The notes beneath the pieces were generated by a model that was given only the letters and a program-made list of their open reading frames with translations, searched no databases and had not been told where the DNA came from. Both the position numbers and the translations under genes were made by a program. This document shows, in pieces, positions 55,369 to 58,230 of a stretch of 62,651 bases of DNA. How positions within the stretch are numbered: position 1 is the stretch's first letter; the number at the start of each line of letters is the position of its first letter. Source of the stretch: Candidatus Magasanikbacteria bacterium CG1_02_32_51 (GTDB lineage Bacteria; Patescibacteriota; Patescibacteriia; Magasanikbacterales; UBA922); assembly GCA_001871435.1 (NCBI GenBank), contig MNVC01000012.1:1-62651 (forward strand), written 5' to 3'.

Positions 55369-58230
55369 ATGAATAAATACAATCCTCAAGAAATAGAAAA
55401 AAAATGGCAAAAGTATTGGGAAGATAATAAGACTTTCAAAACTCCAGAAGACGCTACTGCTGAAAACAAATATTATATTTTACCACAATTACCATATCCA
55501 TCTGGTAGTGGTTTGCATGTGGGTCATGCTGAAGGCTATACAGCTTGTGATATTTTTGCACGTTATCAGAGAATGACTGGAAAGAAAGTCTTACAAGTAA
55601 TTGGTTGGGATAGTTTTGGTCTGCCAGCTGAAAATTATGCTATAAAAAATAATGTTCATCCTAAAATTAGTACAGACAATGCTATTGATAATTTTCGTAA
55701 ACAGATAAAAGCTTTGGGAATATCAGTTGACTGGGATAGGGAAGTAGGCAGTCACAATTCTGATTATTACAAATTTACTCAATGGTTTTTTTTGTTATTT
55801 TACAAACGTGGTTTGGCTTATCGTAAGATGCAGACTGTCAATTGGTGTGACAGTTGTAAAACAGTTCTTGCCAATGATCAAGTAAAAGAAGGACATTGTG
55901 AACGCTGTGATACGCTTGTCATCCAAAAAGAAATGGAACAGTGGTATATCAAAATTACAGACTATGCTGAAAGATTACTTCAAGATATTGATAAATTGGA
56001 CTGGCCAGAAGAAACCAAAAAAAGACAAAAAGATTGGATTGGTAAATCTAGCGGTGCAGAAGTAAATTTTTCTATCAAAGATAGTAATTTGAAAATTCGT
56101 GTTTTTACTACTCGTCCAGATACTCTTTTTGGTGTGACCTATGTGGTTTTGGCTCCAGAAGGAAAATATATTCAAGATTTTAAAGATAAAATTAGTAATT
56201 GGTCAGAAGTAGAAAAATATATTGAAGCGACAAGTAAAAAAACAGAACTTGAAAGACAAATTCAAAAAGAAAAAACTGGTGTTGATTTGCAAAGTATCAA
56301 AGCTATTAACCCTGTTACCAATGAAGAAATTCCAATTTTTGTGGCTGATTATGTAATTGCTTCTTATGGCACTGGAGCTATTATGGCGGTGCCGGCTCAT
56401 GATGAGAGAGACTGGGAATTTGCGAAGAAATATAGTTTGCCTATAAAGGAAGTTGTCGCTCCTAACTTTGTTTTGACTGGCAAAAATGCACCTCAAGGAG
56501 GTGTAGAGACTTTGAACAGAAGAACTGTTACTTGTATTTTAGAAAATCCAAAGACAAATAAATTTTTAGTTATCAAAGAAAAAGATAATAATGTTTTGGT
56601 TGGTGGTGGGGTTGATGAAGGTGAAACACCTGAAGAAGCAATGATTAGAGAGGTACAGGAAGAAACTGGTTATACCAATGTTGAAATTTATAAAAAATTG
56701 TTTGATCATTTATTTTGTTTTCATTTTAGATTTGGCAAAAACAAAAATCAGATGGTGGATGATGTGGTTTATCATGTTATTTTAAATGATGAAACAAAGA
56801 TACCAAGTGAAGTTGAAATTGGTAAACATGGAATAATGTGGGTGTCTAAAGATGAATTACAAAATACTATAACATCTGAAAATCATAAATTCATGTGTGA
56901 GGTATTTTTGAAAGGTGACAATTGTTTTTCAGATTATGGTGTTGCTATAAATTCTGATTTTTTAAATGGCTTAACAACAGAAGAAGCCAAAGAAAAAATG
57001 ATTGAATATTTAGAAGAAAATAAACTTGGTGAAAGAAAAGTACAATACAAACTTCGTGATTGGTCTGTCTCTCGTCAAAGATTTTGGGGAGCGCCAATTC
57101 CCATGCTTCGTAATGAAGAAACAGGGGAGCTAAAACCAGTAGAATTCAAAGAATTACCTGTCCTTCTTCCAGAAGATGTGGATTTTAAGCCAACCGGACA
57201 ATCTCCACTTATTTATTCCCAAACTTTTCAAGAAGGTGTGGAAGAAAAATATGGTAAGGGATGGAAAAGAGAAGTAGATACACTAGATACCTTTATGTGT
57301 TCATCTTGGTACTATTATCGTTATCTTGATCCAAAAAATGAAAATGAATTTGCTAGTCCAGAAGCTTTGAAAAGATGGATGCCAGTAGATTTTTATCTTG
57401 GTGGTCCAGAGCATGTCAATGGACATTTGCTTTACTCTAGATTTTTTACCAAAGTTTTGTTTGATGAAGGTTTGATTGATTTTGATGAACCTTTCAAAGT
57501 GCACCGTCATCAAGGTCTTATTTTGGGGCCAGACAATCGTAAGATGAGTAAACGCTGGGGAAATGTGATAAATCCGACAGACGTGACAGAAGTTTATGGT
57601 GCAGATACTTTGCGTATGTATGAAATGTTTATGGGACCTCTTGAAGAAGATAAACCTTGGGATGAAAATGGTGTGAAAGGTGTGAGAAGATTTTTGGAAC
57701 GTGTATGGTTATATTCTACAACTGTAATTCATAAAATTACGTATGAATTGGACGAAGATAATATTATCAAAGAACTACATAAAACAATTAAGAAAGTTGG
57801 TGAAGATTTATCATTGTTAAGATTCAATACAGCTATTGCCAAATTGATGGAATTTATTAATTTTGTAGCTAAAGATCCCCGACATTTTTCTAAAAATGAT
57901 TCCGAAGTAAGAAAAGATTTTTTGAAACTCCTTTCCCCATTTGCTCCCCACATGGCCGAAGAACTTTGGGAAAATTTTGGAAATAAAAATAGTATCTCAA
58001 CAGAAAAATGGCCAGAGTATGACGAAGCAAAAATAAAAGAAGATACTATTACTGTTGTTGTGCAAGTAAATGGCAAAGTTCGTGATAGTCTAGAAGTGCC
58101 TGTGGAAATTTCTGAAGAAGATATCAAGGTTCAAGTTTTGGCTTTGGAAAATGTGAAGAAATGGTTGGAAGGCAAAGAACCAAAGAAAGTTATTTATGTG
58201 AAAGGAAGATTGGTTTCTATTGTAGTATAA
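55369..58230 (+). CDS. leuS: Leucine--tRNA ligase with an inserted Nudix hydrolase domain
   Basis: HVGH (HIGH), CP1 editing [15 protein letters not shown], KMSKR (KMSKS). A Nudix box lies at 56605-56673. Confidence 0.96.
   Translation: [953 protein letters not shown]

Follow-up and report, generated by a model that had tools for sequence, protein, structure and literature searches.

A complete Nudix domain nested in the editing domain of leucyl-tRNA synthetase in Candidatus Magasanikbacteria and other bacteria

The leucyl-tRNA synthetase (LeuRS) of Candidatus Magasanikbacteria bacterium CG1_02_32_51 carries a complete Nudix domain nested in a loop of its CP1 editing domain. The gene, leuS, lies on a contig (MNVC01000012.1) whose 62,651 nucleotides were analysed over their whole length and are referred to here as the window; all positions are given in its coordinates. 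The first-pass annotation of this DNA had located about 150 extra residues at 56460-56930, and this range was accurate: from the indel relative to the closest ortholog (P0122) and from the alignment to LeuRS of Thermus thermophilus, the inserted segment comprises 160 residues (amino acids (aa) 364-523, 56458..56937, + strand). Window aa 1-364 align to residues 1-363 of the T. thermophilus enzyme (1H3N) and window aa 518-721 to residues 375-580, so that the insert takes the place of an 11-residue CP1 loop (residues 364-374). Relative to P0122 the indel is clean, with 160 aa instead of a loop of ~22 aa and a net gain of 141 residues; in plain LeuRS the loop at this position is 11-22 aa long. The first 19 residues of the insert (56458..56514, + strand) are an N-terminal extension that forms a confident strand (aa 363-368) in the full-length AlphaFold 2 (AF2) model; as free-standing proteins of this Nudix subfamily have the extension too, it is part of the guest domain and not a LeuRS linker. 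The Nudix fold itself, delimited with Pfam and supported by AF2 and Foldseek, occupies aa 383-509 (56515..56895, + strand). The profile search proposed with the first-pass annotation confirmed both the family and these boundaries, as PF00293 matched nearly over its full length, from profile position 2 to 131 out of 134 (E = 9.1e-18, score of 65 bits for a cut-off of 21.1), and its match splits the LeuRS editing-domain model PF13603. The perfect Nudix box reported at 56605-56673 was exact: the motif GX5EX7REUXEEXGU is read in the sequence itself at 56605..56673 (+ strand, 23 residues, aa 413-435, with catalytic R427, E428, E431 and E432), and it is the sole Nudix box in the 62-kb window.

Structure prediction and independent sequences agree with this assignment. 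The AF2 model of the insert, built on a 26-sequence alignment, is a predicted Nudix alpha/beta/alpha sandwich with a predicted local distance difference test score (pLDDT) of 87.8 and a predicted template modelling score (pTM) of 0.81, and in the full-length model the insert and its linkers reach a pLDDT of ~90 (about 89-91 for aa 361-380). When the insert model was compared to the PDB with Foldseek, 559 matches were found at E <= 0.001 and the best 50 were all Nudix-family structures. The best were the MutT/nudix protein of Enterococcus faecalis (2AZW) and the diadenosine tetraphosphate (Ap4A) hydrolase of Aquifex (3I7U), with template modelling (TM) scores of 0.71-0.73, followed by NudI, YfaO, MutT, BdRppH, E. 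coli RppH, M. smegmatis MutT1 and Rv2985; TM scores of these neighbours ranged from 0.6 to 0.73 and identities from 14 to 23%. A sequence search of the PDB with the insert returned distant Nudix matches alone, at E of 1e-5 or above. Three independent contigs, which come from a groundwater metagenome and the metagenome-assembled genome (MAG) GCA_002322575.1, encode this same LeuRS-Nudix protein, and the insert is therefore not an assembly chimera: the Nudix domain nested in the CP1 loop is a real feature of this gene. The GC content of the insert is 30.2% compared to 34.2% in the rest of the gene, and 0.19 compared to 0.22 at third codon positions (GC3), a gap too small to be used as a sign of foreign base composition.

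Conservation of the insert was analysed in the 120 LeuRS nearest to the window protein (Magasanikbacteria and allies), 49 of which carry a Nudix domain at the same site. G413, R427, E428, E431, E432 and G434 are invariant in all 49 and E419 is kept in 46, so the catalytic glutamates singled out in the first-pass annotation are indeed conserved and the domain is complete with its catalytic residues intact. Among the same 49 proteins, the mean identity is ~29% for the inserts and 69% for the LeuRS core. The ratio of nonsynonymous to synonymous substitutions (dN/dS) in the insert, read where synonymous divergence is unsaturated, was 0.04 for the pair L027/L116 and 0.14 for the pair L004/L014. As the box residues are invariant whilst the rest of the domain drops to ~29% identity, the pattern points to catalysis and not just to binding, and from its sequence the nested Nudix domain is very probably active. 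Two features set the subfamily apart: an extension with the pattern 'F.G.G..AP(R/K)' at the N-terminus, and the motif K(D/N)xN. Comparison of the window protein with models of defined activity did not reach the RppH/NudH RNA pyrophosphohydrolase / Ap4A hydrolase equivalog PRK00714 (best 34.3 bits against 118) or the MutT 8-oxo-dGTP diphosphatase TIGR00586 (31.2 bits against a cut-off of 97.9). A Tyr located ~16-18 residues past the Nudix box is a marker of diadenosine polyphosphate (Ap(n)A) hydrolases; the window protein has H452 and F453 at 17-18 residues past the box, and Phe or Tyr is present at these positions in 34/49 and 38/49 of the relatives, respectively.

The host protein is otherwise a normal LeuRS that has all synthetic and editing motifs, judging from its sequence. 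The leuS open reading frame (ORF) is complete (55369..58230, + strand, 953 aa, stop codon included); it scored 975.8 bits with the NCBIfam bacterial LeuRS model TIGR00396 (cut-off 548.4) and matched 1H3N in phmmer at E = 7.8e-219. The HIGH motif of the synthetic site reads HVGH (aa 50-53, 55516..55527, + strand; aligned to LHMGH of T. thermophilus), and H50, G52 and H53 are invariant in a 40-sequence LeuRS alignment. The first part of the CP1 editing domain covers aa 221-363 (56029..56457, + strand; PF13603 profile positions 1-143 match aa 221-366) and includes the T-rich editing motif TTRPDT (aa 247-252, 56107-56124, + strand) and the editing motif AHDERD (aa 343-348, 56395-56412, + strand), both read in the sequence and aligned to the T. 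thermophilus enzyme. T248, R249, D251, T252, H344, D345, R347 and D348 are invariant in Nudix-bearing and plain relatives of the 40-sequence alignment. Downstream of the insert, the second part of CP1 and the returning beta-linker (...ERKVQYKL) occupy aa 524-562 (56938..57054, + strand; P0122 and T. thermophilus alignments, AF2 model), and the catalytic core resumes with a 12-residue motif (aa 563-574, 57055..57090, + strand; same two alignments) that is invariant in the 40 sequences, as is the KMSKS loop KMSKR (aa 725-729, 57541..57555, + strand; aligned to the T. thermophilus enzyme). The anticodon-binding domain PF08264 was found by Pfam at aa 798-914 (57760..58110, + strand). As the synthetic and editing motifs are invariant with or without the insert, the Nudix domain is an addition to CP1 and not a replacement, as had been proposed from the presence of TTRPDT. 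The window protein thus has the domain order, HIGH, KMSKS, ZN1 and editing motifs of the bacterial LeuRS (T. thermophilus 1H3N/2BYT, E. coli 4AQ7, TIGR00396, PF13603), including the ZN1 cysteines in the T. thermophilus alignment, and the same anticodon-binding and C-terminal domains as 1H3N/2BYT and 4AQ7. It differs from the T. thermophilus enzyme by the 160-aa Nudix segment in place of residues 364-374 and by two losses: the Leu-specific domain (T. thermophilus ~581-636) is missing, making it an otherwise minimal enzyme, and the ZN2 cysteines are gone, with RNEETGE where T. thermophilus has HCEACG, around aa 721-725 (57530-57545).

The insert is not a fixed property of closely related LeuRS. 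The window protein is closest to P0122, with 83.5% identity over 810 residues. P0122 lacks the insert, and its locus (L123) has the same neighbourhood as the window (IF-2, thioredoxin, leuS, PDDEXK_3, DUF6580 and a large secreted protein). When presence or absence of the Nudix domain was mapped on a tree of the LeuRS core, 29 parsimony steps were required for the 49 carriers among the 120 proteins, compared to a mean of 38 for shuffled labels. Clustering at >= 45% identity splits the 49 inserts into 23 groups that are scattered over the core tree, and the nearest tree neighbours of the window protein have either no insert or one of five different Nudix types. For pairs with a core identity of 80-90%, identity between the Nudix domains is bimodal, either 59-76% or 28-32%; the window protein and its nearest GTDB relative (L011) are 82% identical in the core and 28% identical in the Nudix domain. 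With purifying selection acting on the insert, this pattern is not explained by rapid divergence alone, and on the sequence comparison the simpler reading is that inserts were replaced rather than merely diverged. The short loop of P0122 was also considered as a remnant of a deleted Nudix domain and this was rejected, the local alignment score being no better than that of shuffled loops (p = 0.31). No recombination tract was detected in the flanks of the insert between the window and P0122: identity at third codon positions beside the insert is 0.67-0.70, about the average of the gene.

Mapping of the architectures of the 120 relatives onto the plain ortholog defined two sites that accommodate additional domains. 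Plain LeuRS are ~800 aa long, those with a Nudix domain ~950 aa and those with a Nudix domain and an alpha/beta hydrolase (Ser_hydrolase) ~1130-1200 aa; the other architectures are an alpha/beta hydrolase alone, an S-adenosylmethionine (SAM) methyltransferase, a methyltransferase with a hydrolase, and HAD_2 with a hydrolase. At site A, the CP1 loop that holds the Nudix domain in the window protein, P0179, P0209 and P0215 carry a SAM methyltransferase (PF13489/PF08241) and P0212 carries a HAD_2 phosphatase (PF13419), all within aa ~381-554. Site B lies past the RDWxxSRQRxWG...PML motif and corresponds to aa ~580-590 of the window protein (nt ~57110-57140), which has no insert there; dozens of relatives (P0125, P0148, P0209, P0212 and others) have at this site an alpha/beta hydrolase of 165-208 aa (Ser_hydrolase, PF06821). 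More distant LeuRS have domains of the same Nudix subfamily upstream of CP1 as well, and also in the latter half of the catalytic domain; Nudix copies are known at the window's site and three others, four in all. Up to three copies are present per LeuRS (P0241, P0242 and L051, the latter a 1735-aa ORF of Candidatus Taylorbacteria): P0241, P0242, P0252 and L051 have two or three Nudix domains, with two in tandem before CP1 and one at the window's site, and the middle copies of such multi-Nudix LeuRS lack a canonical box. A further variant is P0310 (1330 aa), a LeuRS with a CP1 Nudix and a full Ham1/ITPase domain (PF01725, aa 984-1167) placed between the catalytic and anticodon-binding domains.

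The Nudix subfamily also exists as free-standing proteins of 155-205 aa with boundaries equal to those of the insert. In the two free-standing examples examined, the neighbours are HAD, Nudix or CYTH genes and not leuS. One of them, P0269, adjoins a HAD_2 gene and another Nudix gene. The other (P0341, L126:7-627) is an ORF made of the tail of LeuRS CP1 and a Nudix domain; it ends before RDW, is followed by a CYTH-domain gene and lies on a contig that ends just upstream, and it may represent a leuS that was split or has decayed, or else a CP1-Nudix piece that stands alone. On long contigs of 31-124 kb, several LeuRS-Nudix calls (P0013, P0014, P0109) end in frameshifted sequence within or just past the Nudix domain; these frameshifts could be sequencing errors, pseudogenes or split genes.

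To assess the distribution of the architecture, the 172-residue insert region (aa 359-530) was used as a query against 1.84 billion cluster representatives, which gave 750 matches at E <= 1e-3 and 119 at E <= 1e-10. Among the 150 best matches, 104 of the 144 newly fetched sequences contain LeuRS segments and 2 more contain a LeuRS editing domain according to Pfam. The sole non-LeuRS host of the Nudix subfamily among those best matches is P0279, an M17 leucyl aminopeptidase of 1318 aa with a nested GNAT-Nudix-GNAT arrangement. We also scanned GTDB species-representative contigs with a degenerate DNA pattern (MAVPAHD, a gap of 222-252 nt, RExxEExG): at least 120 contigs fit the pattern and all 120 of those listed encode a Nudix domain at the same LeuRS site. 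About 77 of them are labelled Patescibacteria, with ~35 Saccharibacteria and the others distributed among Paceibacteria/Parcubacteria, Magasanik-, Berkel-, Uhr-, Kaiser-, Nomura-, Falkow-, Adler- and Taylorbacteria and Gracilibacteria, the latter requiring genetic code 25; labels of ~23 are uninformative or doubtful. Another ~20 are animal-gut MAGs labelled, by record title only, as Bacilli, Erysipelotrichaceae, Mycoplasmatota or Clostridia (including L004, L014, L022, L032, L048, L052, L070, L098, L104, L106, L112, L113, L117 and L122). Most of these gut MAGs form a coherent clade with 80-96% identity in the core and 65-86% in the Nudix domain; core and insert co-diverge in this clade, in contrast to what is seen in the candidate phyla radiation (CPR). 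The first-pass annotation had raised the possibility of a widespread, already annotated variant: the architecture does prove widespread and is tagged automatically with Pfam domains, whereas it is uncurated and appears to be undescribed. Source annotations read 'leucine--tRNA ligase', 'class I tRNA ligase family protein' or 'alpha/beta fold hydrolase', the family matches of the window protein included no NCBIfam model dedicated to a LeuRS with Nudix, and full-text literature searches returned no description of a LeuRS-Nudix fusion, in line with the earlier remark that none was known.

Our preferred reading, at roughly even confidence, is that LeuRS serves as a permissive scaffold for a 'house-cleaning' guest enzyme that is autonomous and can be exchanged. 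P0122 does without the domain, unrelated enzymes occupy the same loop and Nudix domains occupy several loops, which argues for an autonomous guest and not for LeuRS chemistry; the kinds of guest (Nudix, ITPase, HAD, esterase, methyltransferase and GNAT), which include metabolite-sanitising enzymes, argue in the same direction. So do the free-standing proteins of the subfamily, among them P0269 with its neighbours other than leuS, and the related Nudix domain nested in the M17 aminopeptidase P0279. By structure the insert would belong with the minimal Nudix pyrophosphohydrolases of the MutT / Ap(n)A-hydrolase / RppH class, its putative activity being deduced from the conserved active site, and it would form a self-contained guest that a permissive surface loop of CP1 accommodates in a functional LeuRS. 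Its substrate would most likely be of the free nucleotide type, e.g. a damaged or non-canonical nucleoside triphosphate or a dinucleoside polyphosphate, and hydrolysis would probably proceed independently of aminoacylation and editing. Residing in an essential gene would provide the guest with constitutive expression. The Nudix domain may represent one allele of a cassette-like set also comprising the HAD phosphatase, the SAM methyltransferase, the alpha/beta serine hydrolase and the Ham1 ITPase, which patescibacterial leuS genes would carry at a few loops with frequent gain, loss and replacement, likely by homologous recombination via the highly conserved leuS flanks.

Several points weigh against an autonomous guest. 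The Nudix subfamily is strikingly concentrated in LeuRS (104/144 and 2 more, with one other host), a wider range of hosts would be expected for a purely generic guest, and the domain may have a role tied to LeuRS or tRNA(Leu). The confidently predicted linkers hint at a fixed position on CP1 and not at a loose tether. Every NCBIfam Nudix equivalog (RppH, MutT, NudI and others) remained far under its cut-off on the window protein, the LeuRS core trees are neighbour-joining trees without support values, and synonymous divergence is near saturation for most pairs. A second reading, which we consider unlikely, treats leuS in Patescibacteria and some genome-reduced gut Bacillota as a privileged scaffold, into which a dedicated Nudix subfamily and other small hydrolase or transferase domains would be inserted as in-frame cassettes, duplicated and exchanged between lineages; gene content would then evolve within an essential gene in a way not described so far. 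On this reading the concentration of Nudix domains would reflect not hitch-hiking but a functional tie with the chemistry of LeuRS or with tRNA(Leu), such as the mending of altered tRNA ends or the removal of nucleotides nearby.

The function initially suggested for the domain was the clearance of Ap4A, diadenosine triphosphate (Ap3A) and other adenylylated by-products, or of mis-activated adenylates, at the place where LeuRS makes them. Aminoacyl-tRNA synthetases (aaRSs) are indeed a main source of Ap4A, which is degraded by Nudix enzymes (PMC10148737). Hydrolases of Ap4A, Ap6A and Ap(n)A (3I7U, 1VC8, Rv2985 and RppH-Ap4A) are among the best structural neighbours of the insert, and the concentration of the subfamily in LeuRS would be expected. 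The aromatic residue 17-18 positions past the box, F453 in the window protein, bears a resemblance to the Tyr marker of Ap(n)A hydrolases. However, LeuRS belongs to the class of synthetases with low Ap4A production, the high producers being those for Phe, Lys and His (PMC10148737), and none of these three was among the hosts seen. The syntenic P0122 does without the domain, a methyltransferase or HAD replaces it in the same loop of relatives, Nudix copies are found at four different LeuRS sites, the free-standing members adjoin HAD, Nudix and CYTH genes and not leuS, and scores with RppH/NudH equivalogs were 34 bits for cut-offs of 116-259. Aminoacyl-adenylates are acyl-phosphates and do not have the diphosphate linkages normally cut by Nudix enzymes. 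The coupling to LeuRS by-products is possible and chemically reasonable but unsupported, and we regard it as rather doubtful. A role directed at tRNA is less probable still in our view. According to this proposal, the guests would strip toxic modifications from tRNA ends, such as pyrophosphate added at the 3' end by toxins homologous to RelA/SpoT, or 5' groups resembling caps; CP1 is where the 3'-CCA end of tRNA(Leu) docks, and the fast turnover of the inserts would reflect an arms race. The presence of Nudix domains in or beside CP1 at two of the four sites, the patchy cassette-like replacement typical of conflict systems, the RppH-type RNA pyrophosphohydrolases among the structural neighbours and the confidently predicted linkers are all consistent with repair or defence. 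In contrast, two of the Nudix sites and those of the ITPase and alpha/beta hydrolase are far from CP1 in the sequence, free-standing homologs exist, and selection on the insert is strongly purifying with no sign of diversification where it is measurable. In addition, PADLOC returned only PDC-S07 at 24 bits, over the Nudix box alone and not as a full-length defence match, matches in PHROGs were to generic Nudix proteins, and no toxin or defence genes are located beside leuS in the window or in the ortholog locus.

The remaining explanations do without catalysis or without function. The Nudix fold might serve as a non-catalytic module that binds a nucleotide (an alarmone or ADP-ribose) and modulates LeuRS, or that stabilises CP1. 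The degenerate boxes of some copies in multi-Nudix LeuRS are in keeping with such a role; the box of the window protein is perfect, with R427, E428, E431 and E432 invariant in 49/49 proteins despite the low identity of the domain, and so close an ortholog as P0122 does without the domain, which makes a sensor or structural module very unlikely. Hardly credible is a neutral or selfish insertion, an intein-like element or an assembly artefact: the patchy phyletic distribution and the slightly lower GC content of the insert would fit, but dN/dS is 0.04-0.14 with an invariant active site, three contigs have the same protein, the architecture recurs in at least 120 GTDB contigs, and the reading frame is continuous. 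An intein was rejected on two grounds, as Pfam found no Hint/intein match in the window protein, and the N-terminal junction VV|APN (Ala364) lacks Cys, Ser or Thr and the C-terminal junction SDY|GVA lacks His-Asn.

The architecture belongs to a known kind, an aaRS with an accessory catalytic domain, and what differs here is the Nudix guest. Domain accretion in aaRSs is mostly known from eukaryotes, where it is the basis of functions beyond translation. The insert shares the box and the alpha/beta/alpha fold with minimal Nudix enzymes (2AZW, 3I7U, NudI, MutT, BdRppH/E. coli RppH and M. smegmatis MutT1); it differs from them in being only 14-23% identical, in its own N-terminal extension and in being nested in another enzyme. 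The isoleucyl-tRNA synthetase (IleRS) with GNAT (NCBIfam NF040702, 'ileS_w_GNAT') is likewise a class I synthetase with an unrelated catalytic domain, but host, guest and position differ, and the guest of the window protein is inside CP1 and exchangeable. The BEAN/HABAS domains of RNA polymerase are lineage-specific insertional domains in large essential proteins (PMC11515920); these domains and inteins likewise use few permissive sites in essential proteins and have a polyphyletic or patchy distribution. Unlike them, the LeuRS guests are complete enzymes with conserved active sites and no Hint or splicing motifs, and they are thus presumably kept in the mature protein.

The cassette-like guest set in CPR leuS, for which no description was found in the literature, is more interesting than the Nudix domain alone: a bacterial synthetase with complete extra enzymes in its editing domain, in hundreds of uncultured species, is apparently unpublished. 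If the guests are autonomous, they would show how ultra-small genomes package house-cleaning enzymes and would represent a cassette-like exchange in an essential gene; coupling to LeuRS or tRNA(Leu) would instead make them a new level at which translation is quality-controlled or tRNA is repaired. As the proteins carry plain labels, metabolic reconstructions of CPR genomes would overlook the nested Nudix genes. The question lends itself to direct testing in orthologs that naturally differ by the insert, such as the window protein and P0122.

Within the window (1-62651) no tRNA genes and no Rfam family at gathering score were detected, and no T-box leader precedes leuS. A sigma-70 region-2-like ORF (54654-55364, + strand) stops 4 nt short of the leuS start codon; at the ortholog locus without the insert (L123), gene calling gives two short ORFs, of 76 and 71 aa, for this interval. 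Elsewhere, the ORF at 4059-6413 (+ strand) encodes a 784-aa fusion of a sugar-transfer-associated ATP-grasp domain (PF14397) and a MATCAP-like carboxypeptidase (PF08014). UvrB (41798-44236, + strand, 812 aa) has ~290 residues without a Pfam domain between UvrB_inter (aa 171-247) and Helicase_C (aa 542-650), and this may be another insertion in an essential protein. The ORF at 59482-62235 (- strand) encodes 917 aa rich in Asn and Thr with hydrophobic N- and C-terminal segments and no Pfam match at E <= 1e-5; its product is probably a surface protein, and its ortholog has a faint match to the C-terminal domain of squalene-hopene-cyclase.

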